Below, one piece after another: positions 14,074-53,072 of a stretch of DNA of 64,000 nucleotides. The translations under genes were made by a program, and so were the position numbers. The notes beneath the pieces were generated by a model that was given only the letters and a program-made list of their open reading frames with translations, was not told the DNA's origin and ran no database searches. The stretch's first letter is position 1; each line of letters starts with the position of its first letter. Source of the DNA: an uncultured archaeon. GTDB taxonomy: Archaea > Aenigmatarchaeota > Aenigmatarchaeia > QMZP01. The DNA lies in assembly GCA_964537525.1 (NCBI GenBank), contig CAZIAB010000001.1, forward strand, positions 425-64,424, written 5' to 3'.

Positions 14074-14265
14074 GCTTTAATTTGAATTAGCAAGCTTATA
14101 TTAATTGGACATCCCCGGATTCGTGACCGGCAGTGATTGTGTGGCTGGCATGAAAGTGCTTGCCGGGCCGCGGAAGGAAAAAAACAACAATAAAAACGCA
14201 ATGATATAATTTTATTAAGAACAACGGATATAACATTAATAATACAATAATTAACAGTGAAGCCA
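14074..14265. promoter_or_regulatory. AT-rich promoter/leader region upstream of the surface glycoprotein gene
   Basis: Long A/T tract (ggaaggaaaaaaacaacaataaaaacgcaatgatataattttattaag...) with TATA-like elements about 60 nt upstream of the ATG. This is typical of strongly expressed archaeal cell-surface genes. Confidence 0.4.
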
Positions 14266-32415: not shown

Positions 32416-33072
32416 ATGATAAAGAAAGAGAAGATAACGGACTACAGGAACTTCTGGCTCATCTGGCTCAGCTGCGCAGGGAAACCAGACAAGGGAGAAT
32501 CGCTTTTCGGGATACAGAATGCATGGGACATCAAGACAAACTATCTCTATCATCATGAGACCGGTCTCGGAAAGCCCTTGTACGTGCATATGATAAGGAA
32601 AAACTACATCCGCAAGGAAAAGACAAAACTGGTCCCGAATTTTGCCTGGATAAACGAGTACATAAAGGAAATCGTTGGTGAGGGGGTGGGCAATACATGG
32701 TATCCGAGCGTCTTCATCGGCGGGCGGTGGCCGATTGTCCAGAGCTTCATAGAGAAGAACGCGAACGTGCTTTTCAGCATGGAGAACCTGAAAACTCTCT
32801 ATAAGGAAGATAGGAACATACTTGGCGAGTCCGGTCGTCACATCTTTACAGACATTTTCCTTTACGTAATCTTTTCGAACATGATACAATTCTGTAAAAA
32901 ATACCACGCTGACATCGTATTAAGAATCCTTTCTACTTTCATATCAGTGTTCGCAGACAGGGACCTGCTCAATTACATAAGGAAGATGCACAGCCAGATC
33001 GGTGATAACGTACCAGTATTGATATCCAATGAAGCAGAGATGAACAGGCTCATGTACCCATTTAAGTGGTGA
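32416..33072 (+). CDS. hypothetical protein, aromatic-rich (W/Y/F), no recognisable domain
   Basis: 218 aa from the ATG at 32416 (MIKKEKITDYRNFWLIWLSCAGKPDKGE...). The ORF-track start at 32332 is GTG and lies inside the AT-rich tract. The ORF is uninterrupted, but I recognise no homology, so confidence is low. Confidence 0.4.
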   Translation: MIKKEKITDYRNFWLIWLSCAGKPDKGESLFGIQNAWDIKTNYLYHHETGLGKPLYVHMIRKNYIRKEKTKLVPNFAWINEYIKEIVGEGVGNTWYPSVFIGGRWPIVQSFIEKNANVLFSMENLKTLYKEDRNILGESGRHIFTDIFLYVIFSNMIQFCKKYHADIVLRILSTFISVFADRDLLNYIRKMHSQIGDNVPVLISNEAEMNRLMYPFKW

Positions 33073-34241: not shown

Positions 34242-34790
34242 ATGCTGATGGGCATGGCAGGTGATATAGGATCCACTATAAGGAAGAACTCGATTTCTGT
34301 AATCGTGATGCCGAACACGGCCTATAACGAGACCCTGAAGGACATAGTGAGCGCTGCGCTGGATAAGCACGGCTCGCTCTGTTACATATCGCTCAACAAG
34401 CCATACAACAGCGTGATGACATATCTGAAGAACAAGGGGATTAGTTCTGAGAACATAATATTCATAGACGCGGTGACGAAAAAGCCAGAATCCGATTCAG
34501 ACCAGGTGATATACGTTTCTTCGCCGACAGCACTGACAGAGATTAACATAACCATGAACAAGGTCCTCGAGGCAGGCGGGATAAAGGCCGTCCTCATAGA
34601 TTCCATATCGACGCTTCTGCTCTACACAGAGGAATCGGTCGTCCTGAAGTTCGTGCATTCAATCGTCTCGAAGATGAGGAGCGACAGCAATGACTGCATA
34701 ATGGCTGCCATAGAGGACGAATCCACAAGAGAACTTATAGATGACATGTCAATGTTCGTTGACGAGATTCTGGAGCTGGGCAGGAAATGA
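34242..34790 (+). CDS. inactivated KaiC/RecA-like domain protein (P-loop-less KaiC-like; probably the family catalogued as DUF835)
   Basis: 182 aa. It aligns to the RecA/KaiC core (LCYISLNKPYNSVMTYLKNKGISSENIIFIDA ... KAVLIDSISTLLLY ... KFVHSIVSKMRSDSNDCIMAA), but the Walker A position reads VIVMPNTAYNE with no GxxxxGK[TS]. It is a clear paralog of the ORF at 44715-45332. Confidence 0.6.
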   Translation: MLMGMAGDIGSTIRKNSISVIVMPNTAYNETLKDIVSAALDKHGSLCYISLNKPYNSVMTYLKNKGISSENIIFIDAVTKKPESDSDQVIYVSSPTALTEINITMNKVLEAGGIKAVLIDSISTLLLYTEESVVLKFVHSIVSKMRSDSNDCIMAAIEDESTRELIDDMSMFVDEILELGRK

Positions 34791-35701
34791 ATCCAGTAAA
34801 AGGCAAGACCGGAGGGTCAGGGGCCTCAGAGAAACCCGGGGAACCGGAGATAATCAAATCAATAGTCCTGGATACGATATCAGAGCTAATTATATATCAG
34901 GACACTGAGATGAGGATACTCTGGGTGAACAAGGCTGCTGCGGAGTCAGTGAAGAAGAATCCAGGGGAGCTTGCAGGGAAGCACTGCTACGAGGTCTGGC
35001 CCGGGCACAATAAACCCTGCGTTGGTTGTCCTATCATGAAATCACTGAAGAGCGGGAAGCAGGAAACAGGTGAGGTGACCACCCCTGATGGGAGGGTCTG
35101 GATTATCAGGGGATATCCTGTAATCGAAAACGGGAAGATTGTGAACATGGTGGAAATCGTGCTCGAGATGACCGAGCAGAGGAAGATAGAAGAGAGATAC
35201 AGGAGCCTGGTCGAGCTTGCTCCTGACGGTATAATCAGCGCGGACACGAAAGGGAACATCATTACGTGCAACGATGCCTTTGCAGAGCTCTCTGGCTACA
35301 GGAAGGATGAAATTGCCGGGAAGAATTTCGTGAATCTCCCGACGCTTAGAAAGAGGGACCTGCCAAGGTACATCAAGCTCTTTGCTTCTGTCGTTCGCGG
35401 GAAAAGGCCCGGGCCGTTTGAGTTCGAGTGGGTCCATAAGGACGGCTCTGTCAGGATGGGCGACATCCGCATCGGGGTATTGAAGAAGGACGGGAAGATA
35501 ACAGGCATCCAGGCAGTCATCAGGGACGTTACGAACAGGAAGAAGGCAGAGGAGAATGTTAGCAAGAGAACAGAGGAACTGGAGAGGATAAACAAGCTCT
35601 CCATCGGAAGGGAAGTCAAGATGTCAGAACTCAAGAAAAGGCTAGGGAGGCTTGAGGCTCTGCTGAAGAAGCACGGGATTAGTGAGAAGGATGTGGATTA
35701 G
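34787..35701 (+). CDS. double-PAS-domain signalling protein with a C-terminal coiled-coil
   Basis: Two PAS-like segments (ISELIIYQDTEMRILWVNKAAAE... and APDGIISADTKGNIITCNDAFAELSGYRKDEIAGKNF...) followed by a helical K/E-rich tail. The first PAS carries an HCYEVWPGHNKPCVGCP Cys cluster. The start overlaps the upstream stop (ATGA). Confidence 0.75.
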   Translation: MNPVKGKTGGSGASEKPGEPEIIKSIVLDTISELIIYQDTEMRILWVNKAAAESVKKNPGELAGKHCYEVWPGHNKPCVGCPIMKSLKSGKQETGEVTTPDGRVWIIRGYPVIENGKIVNMVEIVLEMTEQRKIEERYRSLVELAPDGIISADTKGNIITCNDAFAELSGYRKDEIAGKNFVNLPTLRKRDLPRYIKLFASVVRGKRPGPFEFEWVHKDGSVRMGDIRIGVLKKDGKITGIQAVIRDVTNRKKAEENVSKRTEELERINKLSIGREVKMSELKKRLGRLEALLKKHGISEKDVD

Positions 35702-35703
35702 GG

Positions 35704-38700
35704 ATGAACGTCTACAACCTTTTGCCTCTGGTTGCTTTTTCTTCAAACATTGCGCTTGCCCTTTACATACTGTACAGGAATCCCGGGGACAGGCTGAACA
35801 GGATATTCAGCATCGTGCTTTTCTCGGTGGCGGTCTGGTCAATCGGAGAATTTCTATCCTTCACGTCAGCAACGCCTGAGATGTCCGTCCAGCTTTATAC
35901 GATTGCGTGGTCAGGCTCATTGCTGGTTCCGGGCGTGCTGCTGCATTTCTTCCTGGAGTTCACAGGGAGCAGTATAATTAAAAGGAAAAGGAACATACCT
36001 CTTCTTTACCTGCCATATGCGTTCTTCCAGTGCATGGTGATTTTCATGCCAGGCCTCCTGGCGGAATCTGCAAGCGCCACATACTGGGGATACGGATTCG
36101 TGCGCGGGATTCTTTACGTCCCTGTCGTGTTATACCTGCTGGGTTATACGATTGCAGGGATCCTTGCATGCTACAGGTTCTATCTCAAATCCGCAGGCAG
36201 GGTGAGGAATCAGGCAAGGCTCCTCATAATTTCCATGGTCTTCTCGCTGATAGGTGGCATCATAACCGATGTCTTCATGCTGAACGTGGGGTTCGCGGCG
36301 TTCCCGCCCCTGACAACGACATTCTCGACCTTCACTGGGGCGATAATAGCCTATGCAATAGTCAGGCACGGGCTCATGTCTCCCATGAGTTTCAGCATAC
36401 GGAGGAAGACTGCCACGGTCTTTTTGCTGTTCATCATAGCCTTCTGTGCTTTCACGTTTTCCCTGGAGAGCATCTTCTCAGCGAGCGTTGTAGAGGTCCA
36501 GGCCAGGGAGCACCTTGAAACGATAACCCAAATCAAGACGAACTGGATTGATTCTTACATGGGTGACAGGGAGAGCGACATCAAACTCCTTGCATCATCA
36601 TCATCTGTCAGACAGGCATTCAACGGGAAACTTGGCATAGAGATCCAGCTCGCGAAGGACAGCATAAAGCAGAAAGCGATTGAAGTTGCTGGCCAGGTCG
36701 ACGATTACATCAGCAGCCATCCCGGCATGACGGTCGGGGAGCTCCAGAACGACCCGGCGTTCCAGGAGATTGCGGTCCAGCAGGTCGGGGAGACAGGATA
36801 CACGGCACTCACTGATTATGATACCCTGATATGCAGGTTCCATAAGAACCCCGACCTCGTTGACGTTGATTTGCATTCCTTTGCTGAAAGCCTTCCCGGG
36901 TTCTGGTCTGTAATGTCAGAGACAGAAGGAGGAAATGAAGCAGAGGGCTTCTATGACTGGGAAGAGCCTGACGGCAGCATGAAGGAGAAATATATGTATA
37001 TCACGATTCCCATGAGGAGAACAGCCGACGGTGTGGGGGGGCTGAGCGTTGCGGCAACGACCTATCTTGAGGAGTATGAATCCACGATGAAGCTGGCAAA
37101 GGAGTATGAGGATTATTTCCTTGGTTTCATGGAGAACTATGATTATCGTGAGATGTTCCTGATAAGTGCGGGTGGCGAGGTCTGGTGGGCAGCAAGAGAA
37201 AAGAGCGGAATTGGGAAGGACCTTGATGAAGAGCCTTACAACCAAACGGCGCTTGCACGCGTATACAGGGAATCCAGGAACGAGGGCAGGGCTTTCTATG
37301 ACTATGAAATTGATGTGACGGGCGAGGCGTCATTCTTTATTTCTTTTCCCGTTTACATAGAGGACAGGCTCGCTGGGATAATCGTCCTGCAGACAGGGAC
37401 GGAAGACATTGACAGCATCCTGGAGGACAGGACAGGCCTCGGGGAAACCGGGGAAAGCTATCTCGTGGGTGCGGATTACCTCATGAGGTCAAACTCGAGG
37501 TTCCATGAGGAAAGCACGATACTCAGGCTGAGGGTTGATACGGATAACGCAAAGGACTGCTTCCTTCATAAAACCCTTCGTGAAGAAGAAATCGGGGAAA
37601 TGCACGGGGAGATAAAGATAACCAGCAACTACATGGGAACGAGCGTCCTTGGGACGCATGAATACATACCTGAAATGGATTTGTGCCTCCTCGTTGAAAT
37701 CAGCGAGTCAGAGTTGTTCGCTCCCATAAGCGAGATGCAGCAGGGCTTGTTGATATACTTCATCATCATCGTGGTTCTGGGTGCGTTGGTTTCTATTCTC
37801 GTATCCAGCTCTATAACGAAACCCATAATCCGGCTAAGGGATGCCGTGGTTGAGATTGGCAGGGGAAAGCTCAATACCAGGATACTGGTCAATACAGGGG
37901 ACGAGATAGGCGAACTTGCATCTGCTTTCAGGAAGATGACAGGTAACCTGAGGGATTCGCGCAGGGAGATAGAGAAGCGTGCCGAGGAACTGGAGAAGAG
38001 CGTCCATGAGAGGACTGAGCAACTTGACGTGAGGGTCAAGGAACTTACGGACACCAAGACTGCCATCCTTAACATGATGGAGGACGTTGACAAGACCAAC
38101 ATGGAACTGATGAATACCCAGAAGCAGCTGAAGAAGAGCCTTTCTGAGCTGGAGGAGGTCGATGTCAAGAAGAACCAGTTCATCTCCATAGCCGCCCATG
38201 AGCTGAAGACCCCGCTCACGTCGATACATGGATTCTCACAGCTCCTGCTAAACAAGAATGTCGCAGAAAAGGTTGATATGAGGAACAAATACCTCAAGAT
38301 AATGGACCACGAAACCAGGAGGCTTGCAAACCTCGTTGATGACATCCTTGACCTATCCAGGATAGACATGGGGACAATGAAATTCAGCCTTGATAACGTT
38401 GACATGAACGAACTGCTTGACAGCATCAGGAAAGAGGCGGACGTGCTCATAAAGAACAAGGGCCTCCAGCCTGAATATGAGATAAGCAAGAAACTGCCGA
38501 AGGTAAGGACAGACCCTGAGAAGCTGACGCAGGTGCTGATAAACCTGATAAACAATGCCGCGAAATATACCCCAAAGGGCAAGGTAACGTTAAAGGCCTT
38601 GAGGGAAGACCACAGCGTGCGTTTCGTCATAAAGGATACCGGCATAGGGATACCGAAAAACAAGCAGAAAAAGATATTCGAGAGGTTCTACCAGATTGAT

Positions 38701-38955
38701 TCTTCATACACGAGGAGCGCCGGGGGAACCGGTTTGGGCCTTGCACTCTGCAAGGAGTTCATAGAGATGCTTGGCGGTGAGATATGGGTGAACAGCGAAC
38801 CTGGAAAGGGGAGCGAGTTCCATGTCCTACTGCCAATCAGGGCCACCCTCAAGAAGGGTGCCAAGGAGAGAGCGAGAGAAAGCCTAATGAAGGCCAAGAT
38901 TGTTTTGCCTGATGCGGAAAAAGCTACCTTGAAACAGCCCACTCAATCCTCCTGA
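35704..38955 (+). CDS. sensor histidine kinase: N-terminal 7-8 TM domain, large extracytoplasmic Cache-like sensor domain, TM, HAMP, coiled-coil, HisKA, HATPase_c
   Basis: 1083 aa. About 8 TM helices in residues 1-250, a roughly 450-aa extracytoplasmic region, a TM helix (LLIYFIIIVVLGALVSILV), a HAMP-like region (IRLRDAVVEIGRGKLNTRI...GDEIGELASAFRKM), the H-box FISIAAHELKTPLTSI, an N-box LINLINNAAKYT and G-boxes DTGIGI / GGTGLGLALC. No receiver domain. Confidence 0.85.
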   Translation: MNVYNLLPLVAFSSNIALALYILYRNPGDRLNRIFSIVLFSVAVWSIGEFLSFTSATPEMSVQLYTIAWSGSLLVPGVLLHFFLEFTGSSIIKRKRNIPLLYLPYAFFQCMVIFMPGLLAESASATYWGYGFVRGILYVPVVLYLLGYTIAGILACYRFYLKSAGRVRNQARLLIISMVFSLIGGIITDVFMLNVGFAAFPPLTTTFSTFTGAIIAYAIVRHGLMSPMSFSIRRKTATVFLLFIIAFCAFTFSLESIFSASVVEVQAREHLETITQIKTNWIDSYMGDRESDIKLLASSSSVRQAFNGKLGIEIQLAKDSIKQKAIEVAGQVDDYISSHPGMTVGELQNDPAFQEIAVQQVGETGYTALTDYDTLICRFHKNPDLVDVDLHSFAESLPGFWSVMSETEGGNEAEGFYDWEEPDGSMKEKYMYITIPMRRTADGVGGLSVAATTYLEEYESTMKLAKEYEDYFLGFMENYDYREMFLISAGGEVWWAAREKSGIGKDLDEEPYNQTALARVYRESRNEGRAFYDYEIDVTGEASFFISFPVYIEDRLAGIIVLQTGTEDIDSILEDRTGLGETGESYLVGADYLMRSNSRFHEESTILRLRVDTDNAKDCFLHKTLREEEIGEMHGEIKITSNYMGTSVLGTHEYIPEMDLCLLVEISESELFAPISEMQQGLLIYFIIIVVLGALVSILVSSSITKPIIRLRDAVVEIGRGKLNTRILVNTGDEIGELASAFRKMTGNLRDSRREIEKRAEELEKSVHERTEQLDVRVKELTDTKTAILNMMEDVDKTNMELMNTQKQLKKSLSELEEVDVKKNQFISIAAHELKTPLTSIHGFSQLLLNKNVAEKVDMRNKYLKIMDHETRRLANLVDDILDLSRIDMGTMKFSLDNVDMNELLDSIRKEADVLIKNKGLQPEYEISKKLPKVRTDPEKLTQVLINLINNAAKYTPKGKVTLKALREDHSVRFVIKDTGIGIPKNKQKKIFERFYQIDSSYTRSAGGTGLGLALCKEFIEMLGGEIWVNSEPGKGSEFHVLLPIRATLKKGAKERARESLMKAKIVLPDAEKATLKQPTQSS

Positions 38956-39301
38956 TGAGGTCATTGTTGTCAAAGGGTTTCGTGATGTAGTCAAGAATCA
39001 TCAGTTTCTTGAGGGTGCGGTAATTGATTTCCTTTGATTTCAGTATGGTAAGGAAGACTATCTTCGTTTTCCTGGTTTTCGGGGTTTCCCTTATCTTCTT
39101 CGCGACATCGGTTCCCTTCATACCGGGCATCATTATGTCAAGCAGTAGAAGGTCTGGCTTCTCATTCTCGATAATTTCGAGGGCTTCCCTGCCATTGCCC
39201 GCAGTCACTACGTCAAAGCCCTTTGAATCGAGCAGGTCCCTTATCAGAATTAACAGATTCTCTTCATCATCAACGACCATTATCTTTTTCTTCTTGGGCA
39301 T
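38924..39301 (-). CDS. stand-alone CheY-like response-regulator receiver domain protein
   Basis: 125 aa. IMVVDDE, the phospho-acceptor D in LLLLDIMMPG, and T/K positions (FLTILKS...ITKPF). No output domain. Its 3' end overlaps the histidine-kinase 3' end by about 30 nt in a convergent arrangement. Confidence 0.85.
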   Translation of the reverse strand: MPKKKKIMVVDDEENLLILIRDLLDSKGFDVVTAGNGREALEIIENEKPDLLLLDIMMPGMKGTDVAKKIRETPKTRKTKIVFLTILKSKEINYRTLKKLMILDYITKPFDNNDLIRRIEWAVSR

Positions 39302-39326
39302 GTCATGTCCTGAGATGCAGAAGATG

Positions 39327-39698
39327 TCATCCGATAATCTTCTTGATTCTCTTCAGTAAATCGGCGTTGTCAAATGGTTTCGTGATGTAATCCGAGACTC
39401 CCATCTTCTTCAGCGTGTCTTTTCCGGATTCAGAGAACTTTGCAACGGTCAGGAAGGCGACTTTCAGGTCCTTTGTCCCGGGGTCTGCCCTTATCTTCTC
39501 GCAGACCTCCCTGCCGCTCATCCCGGGCATCATCATGTCGAGGAGGACCAGGTCAGGCTTGGTCTTCTTCAGTTTCTCCAGGGCTTCCCTGCCATTGCTG
39601 ACCGCTATCACGTTATATCCCTCGGCCCCCAGGATTGCCTTTATCAGCTCAAGAAGTGAAGACTCGTCATCCACTGCCATTATGGTCTTTGACATCAT
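39327..39698 (-). CDS. stand-alone CheY-like response-regulator receiver domain protein (tandem paralog)
   Basis: 123 aa. IMAVDDE, LVLLDMMMPG, FLTVAKF...ITKPF. Paralogous to the adjacent receiver. Confidence 0.85.
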   Translation of the reverse strand: MMSKTIMAVDDESSLLELIKAILGAEGYNVIAVSNGREALEKLKKTKPDLVLLDMMMPGMSGREVCEKIRADPGTKDLKVAFLTVAKFSESGKDTLKKMGVSDYITKPFDNADLLKRIKKIIG

Positions 39699-39791
39699 TT
39701 ATATTTGTTTATGTTTTATTTAAATCTGAATTCCGGCGTCTGTTTTATAAACCGGTCCGCCAATATATTAATTACTATAGTAGTGGTGATT
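39699..39791. promoter_or_regulatory. AT-rich divergent promoter region between the CheY pair (-) and the KaiC-like gene (+)
   Basis: ttttatttaaat and gttttataaacc TATA-like boxes. A GGTGA ribosome-binding site lies 5 nt before the KaiC ATG. Confidence 0.4.
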
Positions 39792-40659: not shown

Positions 40660-43600
40660 ATGGTATTTCATACTCGCAGATTGCTGGCATTCGCTTTTCT
40701 GTTTTTGGCAGTAACACCTGGTCTGGTGATGGCTGCCCCGAGCGTGAGCCTGTCCTCGCCCGATGACGGAAATGTATCGTTGTCCGGGAGCGTGGCGTTT
40801 GAGTGCAATGCCACGGCAGACTCGCTGACAGAACTCGCTCTGTATACAGACATCATCGGGGGCTGGTCAGCATATGAGACTGCATATTACGGACAACTGT
40901 CCGAGGATTCCAACACGCTTCTGTTGTGCAACTTCACCGGATATGCGTGCAGCGATTCCACGGGAACGGATTCCGGGACATCCATAACGGCGGGCAAGAT
41001 AGGGGGCGGCGTCTTCGTGGACGGGACCGACACGCTAACCTTTTCCAGTGCAGGCAACTTCGACGTGCTGGAGGGCTCGATTGAGATGTGGGTGAAGCCA
41101 GAGGGCAACCTGAGCGGGCAGCACTGGCTCTTCATCGTTGCGCAGAGCCCGAGCGTGCACACGACAGAGTACAGGCTATGGATAGCGGATGACGTCCTGT
41201 ATTTCAGGTTCATGGACGAATACGAATCCCCGTCCAGCGTGTGGAGGGACGTTTCCTCGTGGAATCCCGGGGAGTGGCATCATGTTGCAGCTACGTGGAA
41301 AGCAAGCACGGATTCGATGGAACTTTATGTTGACTCTAGCACGGGCGGGAATTCCTATAATATCGGCGGTATGGGTTACATGGGCTCCATGGGTGACACC
41401 ATGTACGTGGGAAGCTACAAACTGGGTTCAGGCCAGTTCAACGGAACGATGGATGAGTTCAGGATAAGCGATTACGAGAAGAGCGCATCAGAGATAAACG
41501 ATTCCTACATGACCGGCCTGACCAACGTGACCTCCGCCGGCGGGCAATGGACCGTCAGCGGGATAAGCGACGGGACGTATGTGTGGAACTGCATGGCAAC
41601 TGACAACGCATCGGTTACTGGATGGAACGACACGAACAGGACCCTCTACGTGGACGCGTCCAGCCCGCCTGTCGTAAATTCAGTTACAACGGTCCCGAAC
41701 ACGACTGACGGGCTTGACCCGGGCATAGACATAAACGTCACCGCGAACATAACGGACGTGAGCGGAGTCAATGCGAGCATACTCATGTACAGGAGGTCAG
41801 GGACGTCTACGTGGAGCAACGTGACCATGAACAACATAACCCCAGACATCTGGAACGGTTCCTTCCCGGTTCCCCTGCCGCCGGGTACGTGGGAATACGC
41901 GATATGGTACAACGACAGCAACTCTCACTCGAACCAGACAGCCGTAATGAACGTCTCCGCTGAGTATGATTATTCCTGGTCATTATCGCCCTCTTCCATG
42001 GGAACCACTTACATTGTCGCAGGAGAGACCGGAACTCTCGGGGATCTGCATATAACGAACACGGGCGAATATCCGCTGAATTTCAACATATCGTCCACGT
42101 GGGGGGACACATCATTCAACGTATCAGACCCGGACAGCTTTGACATAGGAGTAGGCCAGTCGAGGACCATAAACGTGACGGTGACGGCCTCGGTGACTCC
42201 TTACGAATATGCAGTCAATATAACGATAGGCTGCACGACTCCGGGAGCGAGCACGACCTCCTCTGTGGTGGATGCCTCCCTGATATCTTACGTGGGCGGG
42301 CCCCAGCTCACGGTGACTATAACGAACCATCCCGTTTCCGTCCTTCAGAGCCAGTCGAACATCGTGTTCAATGCGACCGTGAAGAACATAGGTAACGAGA
42401 CTGCTAACGGCACGTGGATAAACTGGACGTTCCCGGCGGGGTGGTCAAACTCCTCGGGGAACGTGACATACTTTGCAGGGAACATAGCGGCAGGCTCCAC
42501 GTTCTACTCGAACATCGTCATGTACACCTCGTCTTCTGCTGCGGCAGGGGTGTCGCAGGTATACCTGAACGCGAGCTCCAACCAGACCTATAACGGCTCT
42601 GACAGCACCCTGATCGGGATATCCTGCAGCAGCTCTGACAGCGTCTGCGGTTCGGGGTGCACCTACCTGACCGATTCCAACTGCGCTGCCCCGGGGGGCG
42701 ACGGGGGGAGTTCCGGCACCTCGGGCACCGTGGTCTCGGGCGGGGGCAGGGCATCCTATTACAGGCTTGACCTGAAGCTTCCCGCAAGGCTTGACCTTTT
42801 CAGGGGAGACATAGAGGACGTCGAGATAGTCGTGATGAACACCAACAACGTCGGGTTTTCAGAGCTAACCCTTTCATCAGGGGGTTACAGGTCAACCCTG
42901 ATATCCCTGTATTCGGGCATCCAGAACGGGACGATTGAGGCGAACTCTGAGATGCCGTTCACGCTGCGCATAAACGTTCCCGGCTACATGGCATACGGGG
43001 AGTATCCTGTAACAATCACTGCCACTGCATACGGGGGCCTGAACACGACCGTTGAGGGCTCTGCAACAATAAGGCTGCTCGTCCACAGCGTTGATGAGAA
43101 CGAAACAATCTCACTTTTCAGGGAAGCACAGAAGGCAATCGGGATAATGAACAGCGCGGGCATCCCAACCAACAGGACGTCAAGGATTCTCGAAGCCGCG
43201 TCCTCATACCTCGATGACTGGAATTATGACAAGGTAAAGGAACTTTCCCTGCTCATACTGGGATACAAGAACAGCTCGCTTGCCGCGAGGGCAATGCTCG
43301 GGGAGCTGGACGAGGGTATCTGGTATGCAGAGAGGTATGGCCTTTCTTTCCCTGAAACCACCAAGCTCAAGTCGCTTGCGTATTCGGCGCTCGCAAGGGA
43401 GGATTTCCAGAGGGCCGAAGATAGGTCTGAATCCGCGCTCCTCACGCTCGCGGTGGAGACGGGCACGGTTCTCCCGCTATTCATGTTCATTGAGAACAAC
43501 TGGCTCCTTATAATCCTCTCCTTTGCCGGGCTATCTGTCATCATGTTCTTTGGCAGGAGGGTGGTTATCCTGTCCCTAATAGAAAGGAGAATAAAGCGCC

Positions 43601-44718
43601 TCTCCGAAGAGAACGGAATCCTTGAGAAGCTGATTTCAGTTTCCAGCTCTGATTACTTCATAGAGAAGAGCATAAGCAAGGGGGAGTATAAGAAGAGTAT
43701 GGATGAATACAGCAGGAAATACTCAGTAAACAAGAGGGAGGAGATACGGCTCAGAGTCAGGAAGATGCTCCTCAAGTCGCGCGGCAGGAAGGCTGCGGAG
43801 GGAAAGAGGATGGAGATGTTCAGGGAACTGATGGCCGAGACGCAGAACAGGTACTTCAGGGAAAGGAAGATTTCCAGGACAGTATACAATTCAACGATAA
43901 GGGAGATATCCAGGGAGATTGCTGACCTGGAGAACAGGAAAGGTGTTAGCACCTCGCTGAAGGCTGCCGTTTCCATAATGATCATCCTGTTGCTTGTGCC
44001 CATGGGGGTTGGTGCAACTCCGCAGCAGGACGCTCTCGGTGCGATAAATGCAGCGGAGGGTCAGATTTCAGACATGGAATCCCTGGGCCTTGGAACGGAA
44101 TATGCGAACGGCACCCTGAACGAGGCCAGGTTCCTATACAACGAGGGCTATTACGCCGGGGCGCAGTCCCTTGCAGAAGAGGTAGGAGATATAAAGGAAT
44201 CTGCTATAAGGGTGGACGGGCTGGTTGATGAAGTGGAGTCAAAGCTCTACGACGTCGGCGCGCAGGGAATAGACGTGTCCGGTCCGTGGGGGCTCTTCTA
44301 CCAGGCAATGGATTCGCTGGAAATGGAGGATTTCGTCACGGCAGAATCGCTTCTTGAGGAGGCATATGAAAAGCTGGACGAGCTCGAGGAGCGCGCCTCC
44401 CTCGAGAGGGCACTCGGAAGCAGCGACACCATGGGCATCGTGGTGAACAACTGGGAATGGTTTTTCTTTTTCCCGGGGCTGTTCGTTTTATGCTTCCTCA
44501 TTACGCGCAAGCTGACATCCAAGGCATTCATCAGGAAGAAGATTAAAAGGCTGGAGAGGGAGAGGGATGACATATCGGGCATGATAAAGGAGGCCCAGAA
44601 AATGTATTTCCAGGATGACAGCCTCGGAAAGATAGAGTATGAGAGCAGGGTGGACAGGTACAATGAGAGACTTGTAGACGCTAAGAAGAACCTGACCGCC
44701 ATGAGGAAGAGGCTTTAG
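40660..44718 (+). CDS. giant surface protein (1352 aa): signal peptide, N-terminal ConA-like/LamG lectin-fold domain, long N-x-S/T-rich beta-rich region, then a duplicated [TM helix + cytoplasmic SHOCT-like coiled-coil] module at the C-terminus
   Basis: Signal peptide MVFHTRRLLAFAFLFLAVTPGLVMA|AP. LamG-like core (GSIEMWVKP...WHHVAATW...LYVDS...GTMDEFRI). Dense sequons. Near the C-terminus, TM(LLIILSFAGLSVIMFF)-IKRLSEENGILEKL...SISKGEYKKSMDEYSRKY is followed by a second TM(WEWFFFFPGLFVLCFLI)-IKRLERERDDISGMIKE...LGKIEYESRVDRYNERL. Confidence 0.75.
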   Translation: MVFHTRRLLAFAFLFLAVTPGLVMAAPSVSLSSPDDGNVSLSGSVAFECNATADSLTELALYTDIIGGWSAYETAYYGQLSEDSNTLLLCNFTGYACSDSTGTDSGTSITAGKIGGGVFVDGTDTLTFSSAGNFDVLEGSIEMWVKPEGNLSGQHWLFIVAQSPSVHTTEYRLWIADDVLYFRFMDEYESPSSVWRDVSSWNPGEWHHVAATWKASTDSMELYVDSSTGGNSYNIGGMGYMGSMGDTMYVGSYKLGSGQFNGTMDEFRISDYEKSASEINDSYMTGLTNVTSAGGQWTVSGISDGTYVWNCMATDNASVTGWNDTNRTLYVDASSPPVVNSVTTVPNTTDGLDPGIDINVTANITDVSGVNASILMYRRSGTSTWSNVTMNNITPDIWNGSFPVPLPPGTWEYAIWYNDSNSHSNQTAVMNVSAEYDYSWSLSPSSMGTTYIVAGETGTLGDLHITNTGEYPLNFNISSTWGDTSFNVSDPDSFDIGVGQSRTINVTVTASVTPYEYAVNITIGCTTPGASTTSSVVDASLISYVGGPQLTVTITNHPVSVLQSQSNIVFNATVKNIGNETANGTWINWTFPAGWSNSSGNVTYFAGNIAAGSTFYSNIVMYTSSSAAAGVSQVYLNASSNQTYNGSDSTLIGISCSSSDSVCGSGCTYLTDSNCAAPGGDGGSSGTSGTVVSGGGRASYYRLDLKLPARLDLFRGDIEDVEIVVMNTNNVGFSELTLSSGGYRSTLISLYSGIQNGTIEANSEMPFTLRINVPGYMAYGEYPVTITATAYGGLNTTVEGSATIRLLVHSVDENETISLFREAQKAIGIMNSAGIPTNRTSRILEAASSYLDDWNYDKVKELSLLILGYKNSSLAARAMLGELDEGIWYAERYGLSFPETTKLKSLAYSALAREDFQRAEDRSESALLTLAVETGTVLPLFMFIENNWLLIILSFAGLSVIMFFGRRVVILSLIERRIKRLSEENGILEKLISVSSSDYFIEKSISKGEYKKSMDEYSRKYSVNKREEIRLRVRKMLLKSRGRKAAEGKRMEMFRELMAETQNRYFRERKISRTVYNSTIREISREIADLENRKGVSTSLKAAVSIMIILLLVPMGVGATPQQDALGAINAAEGQISDMESLGLGTEYANGTLNEARFLYNEGYYAGAQSLAEEVGDIKESAIRVDGLVDEVESKLYDVGAQGIDVSGPWGLFYQAMDSLEMEDFVTAESLLEEAYEKLDELEERASLERALGSSDTMGIVVNNWEWFFFFPGLFVLCFLITRKLTSKAFIRKKIKRLERERDDISGMIKEAQKMYFQDDSLGKIEYESRVDRYNERLVDAKKNLTAMRKRL

Positions 44719-45332
44719 CCGGGCGGGAGCTCGGGGGTGTCGAGACCGGACAGGCCGTAAGGCCAGACAGCACCTGAATCGTGGCTTATCTTCCCTGGCT
44801 CATCGGGGGGTTTTCCTTCCCTGTCCATGGCCGTAAGGTCCTTTGTTTCATCAGCGAACATGACTAAATCGTCTATGAATTCATCAACGTTGACTTCGGA
44901 AACGGTATCCCTCGAAATCATGTAAACAATCTTGCCGGGATTCCCTGCCTTGACGCTGTTGGTGAACCTGAGCACGGATGATGGCTCATGGTATCTGAGG
45001 AGGCAGGATATGTCATCGAACACGAAGGCGTTGCACCTCTTCTTCATCCTGAGTATTGCCCCGGAAATCTCATCAATCGCAGAGGGTGAGGATATGTATA
45101 AGCATCTCTCTGTGGATTCCTGGCTCGAATAGTGGCTGCTGAGGGTGTCTATGAAGCAAAGACTCTTTGCGTCAATGCCGTTCTTTTTCAGTGTTTTCAT
45201 TGCAGAAGAAACAGTATCACTGAGGCACACGTAGCATATCCTATGGTTCCTGAGCTTCTTGATGATGTTCGTTTTCTTGAAATGCTCATCAGACCTTATG
45301 AGGAAAATGAAGAGCCCGTTCTTATCAAACAT
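44715..45332 (-). CDS. inactivated KaiC/RecA-like domain protein, paralog 2 (no P-loop)
   Basis: 205 aa. ICYVCLSDTVSSAMKTLKKNGIDAKSLCFIDT...CLYISSPSAIDEISGAILRMKKRCNAFVFDDISCLLRY...KIVYMISRD aligns to the ORF at 34242 and to the KaiC core, but lacks Walker A. It ends in a P/G-rich tail. Convergent with the 1352-aa gene, overlapping it by 4 bp. Confidence 0.55.
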   Translation of the reverse strand: MFDKNGLFIFLIRSDEHFKKTNIIKKLRNHRICYVCLSDTVSSAMKTLKKNGIDAKSLCFIDTLSSHYSSQESTERCLYISSPSAIDEISGAILRMKKRCNAFVFDDISCLLRYHEPSSVLRFTNSVKAGNPGKIVYMISRDTVSEVNVDEFIDDLVMFADETKDLTAMDREGKPPDEPGKISHDSGAVWPYGLSGLDTPELPPG

Positions 45333-45377
45333 TGCAACACAAGTATTATTTGGTTTCCGGATGACTTAAAATTATGC

Positions 45378-48300
45378 TTACTTCAGTGCATCCCTTATCT
45401 TCCTGTCAATCTCTCCGACCTTTTCCTCGCTCCTCTTCCTCATGCTCTCGAATGCCTCCTTTGATATTATTCCTGACTTGTACTGGTTCTCAAGGAGCCT
45501 TAGCATCCTCTGGTTCTTCGCCTTCTCTGTCCTCAGAACGTCCACGTCGCTGCTGGGCCTGACGGCTCCTGCAACCTGCCTCGCCTCGGACAGCCTTCCC
45601 TTGAGAAGAATCTTCAGGTTCCTGGTCATCCTCCTCATGAAGATTACCAGGACTGCTATTACCACTGCAAACACTATGATAAGTATGACCCACCATGGAA
45701 GGAAGCCGCGCGACAGTATGTCATCGAGCAGGTCCTCTGCCTCCCTTATGAGCTGCCATGCATTGTATACAGAATCGAGCGCGGCATCGTACAGCTCCTT
45801 CTGGAGGTAGTTCTCGGCGAGCTCTATCTCGTTCTCTATGTCCTTTATGAGGTCTTCCACGGGCGAGACGTCGTACCCCGATGCCTTCGCGCTCTCTGTC
45901 CTTGTCTTGAGCTCCCTGAGCTTGGCCTTGAGCCTGACGAGCTCGAAGTCTATGAGCTCCTTCCTGGAGGTGAAGACGAAGAGTGTGAATACCTTGCTGT
46001 CCTTTGACTGGTTGGAATCCGCGGTTATCATGACCTCGTGCTGCCCGGATGCTATCCCGAAGGGGACGAGTATCTTCATGGTGAAGGTTGCCTCCTCTCC
46101 CGCTGCCAGAGTCCCTATGTTCCTCGGTTCGATGATGAACCAGTTTTCCTCTGTCGAGCGGGCGGTCAACTGGACGTTGGTGGCGGGGGAGTCGCCGGTA
46201 TTCTTGACGAGTATGTTGACGTACCTTATCACACCGACCTCGACACCCACCTCCCTGTCGTACTCTGTTATGTTCAGCCTGGCCTGGCCGCCGCCCCCTC
46301 CGGGCCCTGCCTCCTCTGGCGCGCCTCCCTCCTCTCCGCTCGGCGGGGGCGGGGCAGGTGCCTCGCCTATGACGTCAAAGGTCCCGTTGGCAGTGGCATA
46401 GAGGTTATTGACCGTGTTGTACGTCACCTTCACGTTGAGCGTGTAGGTTCCCGGCGGCTGGCTGGTGAATATGTAGGCGCTGACAGAGGGGTCAGTGCTC
46501 GCATCGAAAGTCTTGTTCTCCCCCGCGCCTATGTTGGCTGAGAAGTGCTGGTAGTCCCAGGTCTGCCCCTGGCCAGAGACCCAGTATTCTATCAGGACGT
46601 CAAGGTTGTCAACGTCGCCCTTGTTCTCGGCGTAAAGCTCGAAGTTGAGGATGTCCCCTGGCTCGACCTCCTTGTTTAGTATGTTGACCCCGACGTCGTA
46701 GGGCCCTCCCAGGGAGACCCTTATGTAATCATAGGCAACCGTGTAATACCCTCCTATGGTGGCATTGAGTATGACGTTGTATACCCCGACCGGTGCCAGG
46801 GGCGGCATGGCATAGTTGTAGGTATAGACTCCCACCGACTCCCTTGTCATGCTCGCCTTCGTGGTGCTGAAGTACGGACTGTTGACGGGGTTCAGCACGT
46901 TCAGGTTTATGCTGTCCGGGTCCGTGAGCATGCCAGAGCTGTCAGTGAACCACATCACGAACTTCATGATGCTGTTCTGGTACCAGAGCGGGTAGATTCT
47001 CATGTCAGCGTGTATGCCGTAGCTCGGCGGGTGGTCGGTCATGGTGAAGGTGTAGTTCTGGGTGCTGTTGACGTAAAAGCCGACCTGCGTCTCGTAATAT
47101 GTGGAGTTTACGAGGACCGTGTAGTTTCCTGCCGGATAGCCGTAGGTGGGGAAGTCGATGTATATCCCCGCGTAATCGTTCCTTATGAAGCCGTCGCTCT
47201 CTGTCAGGTATGACTTGTTGAAGATTGTCTCGTTATCAGGGTTTAGTATCACGACTTCGACGGTGACGTTGCCTATATTCTGCTCGCCTGAAGATTCCTT
47301 TGCCCTGTAATAGACAGAGCCCTGGTATCCCTGGTTGCTGTATTCATCGCTCAGGGTGAACATTATCGGGCTCAGTTTCGTGTATACGTAGAAGGTGTCG
47401 CTTCCTGTCTCATTCTCGCCCAGGTCGTCCTCTGCATACACCCATGCCGTGTAGTTTCCGATGTAGGTGGTGTTGCCCCACGTGGAGGGATAATATGCAT
47501 ACCAGCACGAGGTGCTTCCCGGACCGCTTCCGGTGCATCCCCCCCAGTAAAGCCTGGTCATCGAGACGGTGTTGTTGGTCCCGTCGGGCCTGGTCACCGT
47601 CACGTTGATGGGCATGAGTATCGGGCGGTCGGACTGGGCCGTGACGTTTGAGTATATGAGAACGCTCCCCAGCTGCTCTGCGTAATCGGGTATGACCTCG
47701 ACGTCCACGATGGGCTTTATGTAGGGGCTCAGCAGGATTGTCACGTCGATTTCATCGGGCTCGGCAGAAGCGTTGGTTGCATTTATCGTGTAGTTGGCTG
47801 TCCATGTGCTCTGGCCCGCGATTCCGCTGACGTTGTAGTAGAACGTCAGCTCGTACTCATCATCCGAATCTATGGCGAAGGCCGTGGAACTGACGTTGGT
47901 GTGGTTTACCTCCGCGGGGGTGACGCTGAAATCAATCAGCACGTTTCCTGTATTGTTAACTAGAACCATGCAGGCGACTCCCACGTCAGGGCTCTGGGAG
48001 TGCTCGCAATAGGTCTCATTCACGTACCAGCTGGCGTTGACAGGGACTGTCAGGCTCACGTTGAGCGAGAAGTTCCCGGCGTTGTTCGATGTTATGTTGA
48101 GCGTCCCGTTGTAGGTTCCCGGCGGGTATGCGAAGGGGACGGTGGCATTGAGCAGGATTTCCTGGGACTGGCCTGTGGAGAGGTCGTGCGGGCCTTCTGA
48201 TGAGAGAGTGGCAGATAAGCTCCCGGGACCTGTCAGGTTCAGGGTGACGTTATAGACAACGTCATTCCCTGAAGAGAGGATAGTCACATTGCCGAAGCTG

Positions 48301-51296: not shown

Positions 51297-53060
51297 TCAT
51301 CCACCAAGAAGCTTCTTCGTTTTCTGGAATGCCTCCCTGCTTATCAAACCGCTCCTGAAGGATTCCTCAAGCTCCTTCAGCATCATCTCCCTCCTGGATA
51401 GCTTCTTTCCTTCTGTCTCCATCCGTTCCGCTTCCTTTTTCCCTGCTTTCTTTGGCTGCTCCCTTGCAGGCTTTGCTCCTTCCTTTACACGTTCTCCTGT
51501 TTCCGCTGTTTCCATGGGATTCTCTGGAGCGGTTTCCTGCTCACCTTCCACTGCAGGCTCTTTTGCCTGTTTTGCATGCTCGCCTGTTTCCGTAGGCTCT
51601 TCTGCAGGAGACGGCGCGGAAATCTTTCCTTCGGGGGCGGGGGCGCCGCTCCTCTCTCCTGCTATCTTCTTCTCAATCTCCTTCAGCCTGTCAAGGTTCA
51701 GCTTCTTTGCCTTCTCGTATTCGTCCTTCTTGAGGGTCCCTGCCTTGAACTGCTCCTCCATCATCTCGAGCACGGAATTTATCTCATCCTTCTGCTCCTG
51801 GTACTTGACGAGCCTGGGCGATTCCTGCATGCCCGTGTCTGCCATGGCTGACATCCTTGTCTCGAGGTTGTCCCTCATCTCCTCTAGTTCTTCCTTTGTC
51901 ACCAGACCTGACGTCTTGGTGTTGACCTCGTCCATACCCTTCATCATCTCCTGTATGAGCTCGCTGGCAGTGTCCTGCTTTGCCTTGTAGAGCATGAAGT
52001 CCTCAAGGCGCTTGTTCAGCTCCATGAATATCCCGTCAATCTTGTCACCCACCCTCTTGATTCTCTTTTCTGTCTCGTCTACCATTATCATCCTGCTCGC
52101 TATGTTCTTGCTGAACTCGACCACCTTCTCGAGGCTTCCCATCTCGCTGAGAACGGATTCGACCAGTCCCACCTTCTTTATTATAACTGACGTGATTTCG
52201 TCCAGCTTCTCTATCTTGGCCTCGTTCTGCTTTATGTCAGAGTCCAGCTTCGTGAGCAGCTTGGTGAACCTCTCTGGCTTGAGCGTGGCCATTGTCTCGT
52301 TCATGTCCTCTGTCTTCATTGCCACGTCGCTGAGCCGCCCGTCTATGCTCGCTGTGCTGGACCTCAGTTCTCCCAGCTCCTCCATTATTCTCCTCACGGT
52401 ATCTGCATTGCCGTCCTTCTCGTCCTTCACGGCGTCCAAGAATGCCTTGAGCTTCTCGAGCTGGACCTGCATCTTCTCCACCCTCGGAAGGACCTCTATA
52501 CCAGATGGCCTTATCTCGTTCACGAGCCTGGTTATGATGTTCTTTATGTCAGCGGTGTCTACCGTTCCTACTGCCGCCATGTCCTTTGAAATCTTCTTTG
52601 CCGGCTCAGGAGGTGCGGCGACCGGTTCAGCGGAGGGAAGCTCGTCCCCGCCAAGACCCTCGCCCGGACCGGGTTGTGACATGGGGATTATGGGTTCATC
52701 ATACTTCTCCTCCTTTGATTCCTTTGCAGGTTCTCCTGTATCCGATGGCTTGGCCTTCCTTCCTTTCTTCGGTTTCTTGGCCTTGCCTTTGGCTTTCTTT
52801 GGTTTTTCTTCCATTTCTCCTTCTTCCGGTACCTCTGCGGGCACTGCAGCAGCGGGAGATTCTTTATCAACCTCCTCCTCGAGCTTCGCTATCTCTGCCT
52901 TGATTTCATCGAGCTTCTTCTGGTTCTTTCCCTTTACCTCATTGTAATGCTCCTCGCTTATGCTTGCCTCGTTGTATGCCTCTTCCAGCGAGGACAGGAG
53001 CATCTCTATGTCCTCCTTCTGTTTCTGCATCTCAACGAGTTTTTCCTTCTTTCCGGGCAT
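51297..53060 (-). CDS. cytoplasmic coiled-coil protein (587 aa) with three SHOCT-like motifs (N-terminal, internal, C-terminal), a lysine-rich low-complexity linker and P/A/E-rich spacers
   Basis: N-terminal ...LEEAYNEASISEEHYNEVKGKNQKKL. Linker KPKKAKGKAKKPKKGRKAKP. Internal ...EEQFKAGTLKKDEYEKAKKLNLDRL. C-terminal REMMLKELEESFRSGLISREAFQKTKKLLGG, which is a near-consensus SHOCT motif. No TM. Its stop abuts the start of the 1972-aa gene, and it lies 12 bp downstream of the giant ATPase-fusion gene. Confidence 0.65.
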   Translation of the reverse strand: MPGKKEKLVEMQKQKEDIEMLLSSLEEAYNEASISEEHYNEVKGKNQKKLDEIKAEIAKLEEEVDKESPAAAVPAEVPEEGEMEEKPKKAKGKAKKPKKGRKAKPSDTGEPAKESKEEKYDEPIIPMSQPGPGEGLGGDELPSAEPVAAPPEPAKKISKDMAAVGTVDTADIKNIITRLVNEIRPSGIEVLPRVEKMQVQLEKLKAFLDAVKDEKDGNADTVRRIMEELGELRSSTASIDGRLSDVAMKTEDMNETMATLKPERFTKLLTKLDSDIKQNEAKIEKLDEITSVIIKKVGLVESVLSEMGSLEKVVEFSKNIASRMIMVDETEKRIKRVGDKIDGIFMELNKRLEDFMLYKAKQDTASELIQEMMKGMDEVNTKTSGLVTKEELEEMRDNLETRMSAMADTGMQESPRLVKYQEQKDEINSVLEMMEEQFKAGTLKKDEYEKAKKLNLDRLKEIEKKIAGERSGAPAPEGKISAPSPAEEPTETGEHAKQAKEPAVEGEQETAPENPMETAETGERVKEGAKPAREQPKKAGKKEAERMETEGKKLSRREMMLKELEESFRSGLISREAFQKTKKLLGG

Positions 53061-53072
53061 GTCTTACACCTC

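Follow-up and report, generated by a model that had tools for sequence, protein, structure and literature searches.

A 7TM and Cache-type histidine kinase with two stand-alone receivers beside KaiC-family proteins in a DPANN-type archaeon

Genes and domains of the signalling module

The 64-kb stretch of archaeal DNA analysed here (the window) encodes a kinase-less PAS-PAS sensor, a sensor histidine kinase and two stand-alone receivers (REC1 and REC2) among proteins of the KaiC family (Table 1). The four open reading frames were found at the coordinates given in an earlier reading of the sequence by a model (the original prediction), and their translations agreed with its description. Together, they very probably represent a real two-component system with a non-transcriptional output. 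The genes of the degenerate KaiC-like protein sKaiC182, the PAS-PAS sensor and the kinase follow one another as an operon, in which the sKaiC182 stop codon overlaps the PAS-PAS start codon by 4 nt (ATGA), and 2 nt separate the PAS-PAS and kinase genes. The label 'DPANN-type archaeon' is based on archaeal marker genes in the window, namely those for diphthamide synthase, HMG-CoA reductase, AglB/STT3, a RuBisCO large-subunit homolog, an aCPSF-type beta-CASP protein, SecDF and PPDK, and on the source names of the best matches. The nearest named relatives of the window proteins were Aenigmatarchaeota, Nanoarchaeota, Anstonellales and 'DPANN group', and one related locus is from Altiarchaeales.

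Hydropathy analysis gave the kinase nine transmembrane helices and an outside N-terminus, with seven helices followed by a short basic loop (RRK), helix 8 (aa 236-258), the outside domain and helix 9 (aa 682-704), after which HAMP begins. The Pfam match to HisKA_7TM at aa 9-225 (3.3e-21, 76.6 bits against a cutoff of 28.6) is accompanied by seven hydropathy peaks, and HisKA and HATPase_c scored 67.5 and 113 bits, respectively. In the alignment of orthologs, used because an exact-sequence look-up of the window kinase returned no record, H832 (H-box), N947/N951 (N-box), D978-G980-G982 (G1-box) and G1008-G1012 (G2-box) were invariant, and their codons were checked. With its H-box histidine and its N, G1 and G2 ATP-binding boxes, the protein is a two-component kinase of the HisKA type, not the CheA type, and no REC domain was detected in it in the Pfam scan. 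The originally predicted order of a multi-helix N-terminus, an extracytoplasmic domain, HAMP, HisKA and HATPase_c without a receiver thus stood, but the outside domain spans about 420 rather than 450 aa and the helices number nine rather than seven.

Pfam detected Response_reg alone in both REC1 and REC2, in agreement with their description as proteins of CheY-like size without output domains. In alignment with Escherichia coli CheY, the residues matching D12, D13, D57, T87, Y106 and K109 are all kept, including the phospho-acceptor aspartate, and judged by these residues both receivers look functional. Pfam scans of the open reading frames in the window detected neither a third receiver nor a DNA-binding response regulator, and a six-frame scan of the window detected no further REC, kinase or tail-bearing sensor (see below), so that the predicted lack of a helix–turn–helix regulator nearby holds for the whole 64 kb. 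The receiver genes lie on the minus strand, convergent with the kinase gene, whose 3' end they overlap by 32 nt, and divergent from the gene of the KaiC-like ATPase KaiC284. Because of this opposite, convergent orientation, the receivers are not co-transcribed with the kinase. The spacer between REC2 and KaiC284 probably holds archaeal promoters, judging from its two boxes; a scan for sigma-70 promoters and intrinsic terminators, which is inapplicable to archaea, gave background numbers. REC1 and REC2 are 54% identical, REC2 is 70% identical to the receiver of locus L173, and REC1 scores below REC2 against the receivers of L172 and L173. By these comparisons REC2 is the conserved ortholog and REC1 a lineage-specific duplicate.

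Three KaiC-family proteins are encoded around the module. The first, sKaiC182, gave Pfam matches to KaiC (26.9 bits), DUF7504, DUF7090 and, below the cutoff, DUF835. The alignment of its family lacks the GxxxxGK[ST] motif and keeps a Walker-B-like 'DSISTLL'. Its AlphaFold model (predicted local distance difference test, pLDDT, 90) best matched KaiC, PH0284 and PH0186 (Pyrococcus KaiC-like proteins), FlaH and RecA in Foldseek (TMq 0.6-0.74), which assigns it a predicted KaiC/RecA-like fold with a lost P-loop (hereafter iKaiC). The second, u205, is a paralog of sKaiC182. The third, KaiC284, retains the motifs GGPGSGKT (Walker A), SFEESEE and FVIVDS and is classed by them as an active-type KaiC-like ATPase. 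It has 2078 homologs, with 58-68% identity across Aenigmatarchaeota, Nanoarchaeota and Anstonellales, and is syntenic with giant surface proteins. KaiC284 was rejected as the archaellum protein ArlH (47.9 bits against a cutoff of 215, with no arl genes in the window) and as a clock KaiC (NCBIfam circ_KaiC, 81.5 bits against a cutoff of 546, with one domain only). Upstream of sKaiC182 lies a MinD-type ATPase gene, a position conserved in L001, L003 and L007. Judging from gene lengths in syntenic loci, the starts listed for KaiC284 and MinD are probably correct.

Table 1. Positions of the features in the window and of two feature groups in related loci and proteins
Feature	Position	Strand	Evidence and remarks
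Two cytoplasmic coiled-coil giants, 1773 aa and 838 aa	24285..32119	-	no transmembrane helices; E+K+Q+L+A+R fraction 0.49-0.53; DUF7310 and Baculo_PEP_C coiled-coil matches
Archaeal MinD-type ATPase, 257 aa	33264..34037	+	TIGR01969 minD_arch 204.1 bits, cutoff 201.75; deviant Walker A SGKGGVGKTT
sKaiC182, degenerate KaiC domain without Walker A ('iKaiC'; DUF7504/DUF7090/DUF835-like), 182 aa	34242..34790	+	Pfam, AlphaFold/Foldseek
Kinase-less PAS-PAS sensor, 304 aa	34787..35701	+	PAS1 aa 28-132, PAS2 aa 136-249, tail about aa 262-300
PAS1 motif C67-Y-E69-x8-C78-x2-C81-P82	34985..35032	+	candidate Fe-S, metal or redox site; codons verified
C-terminal coiled-coil tail 'EELERINKLSIGREVKMSELKKRLGRLEALL'	35570..35686	+	locally built hidden Markov model, 57.6 bits
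Sensor histidine kinase, 1083 aa	35704..38955	+	HisKA_7TM, helix 8, outside domain, helix 9, HAMP, coiled-coil linker, HisKA, HATPase_c; Pfam and transmembrane scan
N-terminal 7TM module, aa 6-223 (HisKA_7TM, PF16927)	35719..36372	+	Pfam and hydropathy peaks
Extracytoplasmic sensor domain, aa 259-681, predicted Cache-type	36478..37746	+	AlphaFold model and Foldseek
Transmitter core	37801..38838	+	HAMP aa 700-751, signalling helix 752-822, HisKA 823-889, HATPase_c 937-1045; H832 at nt 38197-38199
REC1, stand-alone receiver, 125 aa	38924..39301	-	Pfam Response_reg 97.1 bits (9e-28); acceptor D55 at nt 39137-39139
REC2, stand-alone receiver, 123 aa	39327..39698	-	Pfam Response_reg 100.7 bits (7e-29); acceptor D54 at nt 39537-39539
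Divergent AT-rich spacer, 93 nt, REC2/KaiC284	39699..39791		TTTATATT and TTTTATAAA boxes
KaiC284, single-domain KaiC-like ATPase (DUF7125 type), 284 aa	39792..40646	+	Pfam KaiC 1.7e-48, 165.5 bits
Surface-apparatus genes	40660..63908		1352-aa Laminin_G_3 membrane protein (+), 1972-aa protein (-), 587-aa coiled-coil protein (-), HerA-fused giant (-)
u205, second iKaiC paralog, 205 aa	44715..45332	-	30% identical to sKaiC182, E 5e-18; same position in L001 and L007
HerA-fused giant, >3611 aa	53073-63908	-	frame open to 63998 at the window end; Pfam and transmembrane scan
Tail-bearing sensors	window 35570-35686; L005:9064-9996; L008:4206-8812; L095:8268-11041; P0009, P0013, P0018, P0027-29, P0040, P0042-44, P0047, P0049		
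Pair of about 110-aa protein and KaiC-like (DUF7125) ATPase	L005:13167-14169; L088:2081-3081; L090:57-1057; L172:8843-9876; L173:8810-9810		in L005 directly after kinase-REC

Sensory inputs

The original prediction had named dCache and CHASE as domains to be sought in the outside domain of the kinase. The dCache_1 match (PF02743) at aa 473-598 scored 44.6 bits, just under the Pfam cutoff of 45, and kinase orthologs have precomputed PF02743 matches. The AlphaFold model of aa 255-705 (pLDDT 89.5) consists of a long helix and then three PAS/Cache-like alpha/beta modules, and Foldseek against the PDB matched it to the dCache ligand-binding domains of McpH (8bmv), DctB (3by9), PctA (5ltx) and Mlp24 (6ior), with E values of about 1e-9, TMt of 0.5-0.57 and about 213 columns. 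The domain is thus predicted to be of the Cache type, a long helix with tandem PAS-like modules between two transmembrane helices, and apparently exceeds a standard dCache domain by one module. It resembles the sensors PctA, McpH, Mlp24 and DctB in fold and in its placement between two transmembrane helices followed by HAMP, but differs from them in its length, in its three predicted modules instead of two, in its score just below the Pfam gathering cutoff and in the 7TM module in front of it. In metagenomes, the family of the outside domain had at least 575 confirmed matches among 600 stretches. Among 80 loci of this family, the 7TM module occurred in one and a KaiC-like gene nearby in two; the sensor part is a mobile input module and therefore unusable as an argument for a link with KaiC. 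Close relatives of the domain (43-55% identity; P0008, P0010, P0029 and P0031) are labelled by source as Patescibacteria, bacteria of the Candidate Phyla Radiation (CPR); either DPANN archaea and CPR bacteria have this domain in common, or the labels reflect mixed bins.

Pfam assigned the first PAS domain of the PAS-PAS protein to PAS_4 (8e-25) and the second to PAS/PAS_9 (1.6e-23); the second resembles FixL/LOV-type PAS domains, without the LOV cysteine. Orthologs are present in L003/L004 (79% identity) and L005/L006 (39%), and the gene is absent from the syntenic loci L001, L002 and L007, which makes this protein an accessory input. The cysteine motif HCYEVWPGHNKPCVGCP noticed earlier at aa 66-82 of the first PAS domain is indeed present; three orthologs, the most distant of them 39% identical, all keep C67, E69, C78, C81 and P82, but H66 and H74 are not conserved. 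In the PAS domain of OrpR from Desulfovibrio vulgaris, C52, D/E54, C61 and C65 bind a redox-sensitive [4Fe-4S] cluster (PMC8359166). Both motifs have three conserved cysteines, with an acidic residue at the second position behind the first, but the spacing is C-x10-C-x2-C in the window and C-x8-C-x3-C in OrpR. By this analogy, an Fe-S or redox role of the first PAS domain is plausible. The cysteine triad may instead form a structural Zn site or a thiol/disulfide switch (CxxC), as only three cysteines are conserved and their spacing departs from that of OrpR. The CxxC-P arrangement is also typical of Zn knuckles and redox-active disulfides. Considering that the acidic residue two positions after the first cysteine is kept exactly as in OrpR homologs, we regard such a site as possible, though somewhat improbable.

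The PAS-PAS protein ends in a conserved coiled-coil tail, EELERINKLSIGREVKMSELKKRL, with a family consensus of about 40 aa (ELE+FNKLxVGRELKMxELKK+I). The hidden Markov model built for this tail detected it in 22 proteins, in each 1-18 residues from the C-terminus, and all 12 of the tail proteins with precomputed Pfam domains are without HisKA and HATPase. Their input domains vary and include PAS arrays, dCache-HAMP, sCache-HAMP and other Cache types. Where gene context was seen (the window, L003, L005, L008 and L095), the tail-bearing sensor is encoded directly upstream of a kinase and a REC-only gene. The same model did not detect the tail in about 80 mostly bacterial kinase loci obtained from a genome-contig profile search, in which the full-length kinase alignment had picked generic HisKA/HATPase motifs and which yielded one useful locus, L008 from Altiarchaeales. 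A literature search for the motif string found no relevant paper printing it. The PAS-PAS protein thus belongs to a class of kinase-less sensors sharing a C-terminal tail, which appears to be new.

Recurrence of the module and its genomic setting

Loci for comparison (L-numbers) were picked by hand from search matches, and functional links were read from gene context. Synteny with the whole block was seen in loci of four other metagenome samples or assemblies, where the kinases are 75-80% identical to that of the window. At least five further lineages have the kinase core and REC2 ortholog beside a degenerate KaiC and near KaiC-like ATPases. The transmitter core from HAMP to the catalytic ATP-binding domain is 56-57% identical to those of the kinases of L172 and L173, which are from other DPANN lineages and have different sensor parts; one of them, a short HAMP kinase, follows three SBP_bac_3 genes, and the other has an unassigned N-terminus. 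In both loci, the REC gene is in an operon with a homolog of sKaiC182, and two genes of KaiC-like ATPases are found 5-9 kb from this pair, which in L173 also adjoins orthologs of the 1972-aa, 587-aa and HerA-fused giant proteins. The order in L005 is a PAS-tail protein, a solute-binding protein, an sCache-HAMP-tail protein, a 7TM-Cache kinase, REC, a 122-aa protein and KaiC223; 6 kb further, REC adjoins iKaiC, and iKaiC adjoins a giant protein. L008 has KaiC, iKaiC, two tail-bearing sensors, kinase, REC and iKaiC in this order, and in L176 a single overlapping operon comprises two kinases, two REC proteins, a 202-aa protein, iKaiC and an ArsA/MinD-like ATPase. In all five loci, iKaiC is thus coupled to REC-only genes by adjacency or a shared operon. 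In most cases, the set of kinase core, REC2 and iKaiC is found next to KaiC-like ATPases and giant surface proteins, whatever sensor part the kinase has. The 202-aa protein of L176 (4456-5064), encoded between the two REC genes and iKaiC, has a faint match to CheX, a phosphatase of phosphorylated CheY, and may be a dedicated REC phosphatase in that lineage.

The family of sKaiC182 comprises 3650 cluster representatives at E <= 0.001. Among its 150 best matches, 22 over-long proteins (>300 aa) were examined, of which 19 have a coiled-coil-like composition (E+K+Q+L+A+R fraction of 0.44-0.59) and no predicted transmembrane helix, tying iKaiC to scaffolds like those of the window. In many relatives, the DUF7504 iKaiC domain lies inside coiled-coil proteins of 430-860 aa (P0264, P0269, P0275-77, P0282, P0287, P0289, P0291, P0341 and others). 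This suggests that iKaiC works on or within a coiled-coil scaffold resembling the 838-, 1773- and 587-aa proteins.

The signalling module lies inside a block of about 40 kb that extends from after the TIM gene (24285) to the window end and also holds the coiled-coil giants, a 218-aa protein, MinD, sKaiC182, KaiC284, a Laminin_G_3 protein, u205 and the surface giants. The 1773- and 838-aa proteins, the presumed scaffold, are syntenic in L001, L003 and L007. Among the surface proteins, which have orthologs in L088, L090 and L173, the 1972-aa protein has a signal peptide and a C-terminal anchor in the scan for signal peptides and transmembrane helices. The giant of more than 3611 aa has an NPCBM_assoc-type domain (aa 2332-2401), a single transmembrane helix (aa 3214-3232) and a C-terminal cytoplasmic HerA/DUF87 P-loop ATPase (aa 3270-3376). 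Such a fusion of a translocation-type ATPase to a huge extracellular protein is unusual; orthologs alike in fusion or position occur in L173 (5380 aa) and L088 (13450 aa). Positions 39792-63908 correspond to a block conserved across the DPANN-type lineages of L088, L090 and L173, which encodes a KaiC-like ATPase, a Laminin_G_3 membrane protein (about 1350 aa), a small iKaiC, a surface protein (about 1950 aa), a coiled-coil protein (about 550-650 aa) and a HerA-fused giant; no description of it was found in the literature searched. The embedding of the whole module in the surface-apparatus cluster of about 40 kb appears to be new. PADLOC gave only partial matches to generic domains, and thus no sign that the module is a known defence system.

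The gene of the 218-aa protein (32416-33072, plus strand) precedes MinD in each of the four syntenic loci of the window lineage, and none was seen in the more distant lineages. Neither this protein nor u205 has a helix–turn–helix or other Pfam match, and the 218-aa protein, which also lacks NCBIfam and PADLOC matches, could still have a DNA-binding role. In other lineages, a gene pair for a protein of about 110 aa and a KaiC-like (DUF7125) ATPase of 222-223 aa, absent from the window, is divergent from the KaiC284 ortholog. The 1.1-Mb DPANN contig of L172 carries an RNA polymerase A'' gene with an intein containing a LAGLIDADG endonuclease domain (12207-14804).

Proposed signalling scenario and comparison with known systems

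Considering these results, we propose the following scenario for the module. The Cache domain would sense an external ligand and the 7TM module possibly a membrane cue, and these would set the activity of the kinase. The co-translated PAS-PAS protein would contribute a further, cytoplasmic signal, probably redox or Fe-S, by way of its coiled-coil tail. From H832, the phosphoryl group would pass to D54 of REC2 and also to D55 of the duplicate REC1, a pairing for which the evidence is that the kinase core and the REC2 ortholog stay adjacent across loci. REC1 may serve as a second output or as a phosphate sink, the latter role being compatible with every reading considered here. Phosphorylated REC would then bind the assembly of iKaiC and KaiC-like ATPase, possibly with MinD and the coiled-coil scaffold, and this assembly would tune the building or activity of the adjacent surface apparatus. 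We slightly favour the iKaiC/KaiC module as the output partner, and we regard the surface apparatus as a possible, though somewhat improbable, target; for the whole chain, from sensing through phosphorelay and the iKaiC/KaiC assembly to the surface apparatus, the chances appear about even. Of the originally predicted protein–protein output, the intact output-less receivers and the lack of a DNA-binding regulator in 64 kb support the general mode, but the partner is read from gene context only. The predicted link to KaiC-like proteins gained comparative support from the further lineages and from published fusions of receivers to iKaiC (PMC5847659).

Several observations weigh against this scenario. 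The evidence for linkage is gene neighbourhood throughout, from which we infer both interaction and phosphotransfer, and the lineages were chosen by hand. In the window the receivers lie outside the kinase operon, and no fusion of REC to iKaiC was found in the sKaiC182 subfamily, in which ten over-long matches scanned with Pfam showed no REC. The family of the outside domain is mostly unlinked to KaiC, as the two of 80 loci indicate. Furthermore, no kinase or REC accompanies KaiC284 and the giants within the stretches seen of L088 and L090, and in L175 iKaiC is found without a two-component system; the system is therefore a recurrent accessory and not the core of the apparatus.

The absences in L088 and L090 also speak for a reading in which the neighbourhood is circumstantial, the system lies in a variable region beside the surface-protein cluster and the receivers act on partners encoded elsewhere, which might be a general stress pathway or a transcription factor. 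According to the 2018 census (Galperin et al., PMC5847659), the gene surroundings of most REC-only regulators in archaea are not conserved, and the PAS-PAS gene comes and goes among loci whose kinases are 75-80% identical. However, the kinase core, REC2 and iKaiC stay together where KaiC284 is only about 58-62% identical and the gene order is otherwise rearranged, and we consider the circumstantial reading unlikely. Still less probable is a reversed direction, in which the state of the KaiC-like ATPase is the input that modulates the kinase, with iKaiC and the PAS-PAS protein as relays, and the receivers signal to targets encoded elsewhere. The translational coupling of sKaiC182, the PAS-PAS protein and the kinase in one operon and the order KaiC-iKaiC-sensor-sensor-kinase in L008 agree with such a direction, for which the cyanobacterial clock, running from KaiC through SasA/CikA to RpaA, is a precedent. 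On the other hand, iKaiC in L172, L173 and L176 is in an operon with or beside REC rather than upstream of the kinase, iKaiC is fused to REC and not to kinases in published proteins, and no KaiB-like or SasA-like domain was found in Pfam and NCBIfam scans. The predicted analogy with chemotaxis or archaellum switching, in which the receivers would act as CheY on motility, is hardly credible: the receivers keep T87/Y106-type switch residues and the KaiC-like ArlH is part of the archaellum motor (PMC4858521), but Pfam detected no CheA, CheW, MCP, CheF or archaellum genes in the 64 kb, the kinase is of the HisKA type, KaiC284 fell far below the ArlH cutoff, and the 25 best NCBIfam matches listed per receiver include PhoB, PleD, YycF, MtrA and DivK-type families and no CheY model.

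In a more far-reaching reading, the tail may act in trans as a plug by which varied modular sensors enter one kinase-REC-iKaiC/KaiC hub that controls a DPANN-specific, envelope-spanning apparatus of giant surface proteins, the HerA-fused giant, MinD and coiled-coil scaffolds. We regard this reading as doubtful. If it is true, the apparatus would be a candidate host-contact machine of small symbiotic archaea. Should the common tail of the kinase-less sensors prove real, it would represent a novel means by which two-component systems combine their inputs.

REC-only proteins make up about 40% of the response regulators of archaea, and protein–protein output is the prevailing archaeal mode (PMC5847659). 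The presence of stand-alone receivers only, as noted in the original prediction, is the normal state in archaea and no peculiarity of the locus. The module shares with such systems, including FilI/FilR2 of Methanosaeta and QarB/QarC of Haloferax volcanii (PMC13464002), a HisKA-type kinase, REC-only regulators with phospho-acceptor residues and an inferred protein–protein output. However, most archaeal kinases are cytoplasmic PAS/GAF proteins, whereas the window kinase has nine transmembrane helices and a large Cache-type outside domain, and dCache is reported to be rare in archaea outside Methanomicrobia (PMC5847659). A DNA-binding regulator is a further partner of both FilI and QarB, but no such regulator was found in the 64-kb window; unlike most REC-only genes, REC1 and REC2 lie in a conserved neighbourhood.

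The closest published counterparts are the iKaiC-REC proteins of Methanosarcinaceae and the REC-DUF835 and REC-PAS-PAS-DUF835 proteins of Methanomicrobia and Thermoplasmata (PMC5847659). Both they and the window combine a receiver, tandem PAS domains and an inactivated KaiC, with a KaiC-family module as the presumed signalling partner. In the window, these blocks are instead separate genes, the iKaiC is of the DUF7504/DUF7090 branch with a DUF835 score below the Pfam cutoff, the PAS-PAS protein has an extra tail, and the setting is a DPANN-type genome beside giant surface proteins. The separate REC, PAS-PAS and iKaiC genes thus look like a split-gene counterpart of REC-PAS-PAS-DUF835.

The cyanobacterial KaiC-SasA/CikA-RpaA pathway likewise couples a KaiC-family ATPase to a histidine kinase and a receiver, and receiver-like domains (the KaiA N-terminus and CikA PsR) dock onto Kai complexes. 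In contrast, the KaiC of the window has one domain instead of two, no KaiA- or KaiB-like match was found among the Pfam results of the window and no SasA-like domain in the Pfam and NCBIfam scans, and RpaA binds DNA while the window receivers have no output domain; there is no sign of an oscillator. KaiC-like ATPases are also tied to archaeal surface structures, as ArlH/FlaH in the archaellum and as KaiC arCOGs beside type IV pili (PMC4858521), and CirA of H. volcanii is a KaiC-like surface-structure regulator (PMC13464002). KaiC284 resembles them as a single-domain KaiC-like ATPase encoded with surface-structure genes, but differs in failing the ArlH model and in its neighbours, which are giant Laminin_G/MG2/NPCBM_assoc proteins and the HerA-fused giant, with no pilin, ArlI/J or TadC genes in the window.

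The targets of output-less receivers are a standing gap in archaeal signal transduction, and the function of most of these receivers could not be inferred in the 2018 census because of their lack of a conserved gene neighbourhood. REC1/REC2, sKaiC182/u205 and KaiC284 make the KaiC-hub proposal of Makarova et al. (2017), in the form cited in PMC5847659, a concrete, testable set of small proteins, and since the module lies inside the block of about 40 kb conserved in DPANN-type lineages, it could be a regulatory entry point to a cell-surface or host-contact machine. Output-less receivers, protein–protein output, REC-iKaiC fusions, the KaiC hub and KaiC-like ATPases at surface structures are already known. 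The present study adds to the published systems REC-only genes in a conserved iKaiC neighbourhood of DPANN and Altiarchaeota, a conserved kinase core with swapped inputs, a 7TM and predicted three-module Cache input, a class of kinase-less sensors defined by their tail, and the position of the module inside a cluster of giant surface proteins and a HerA fusion.

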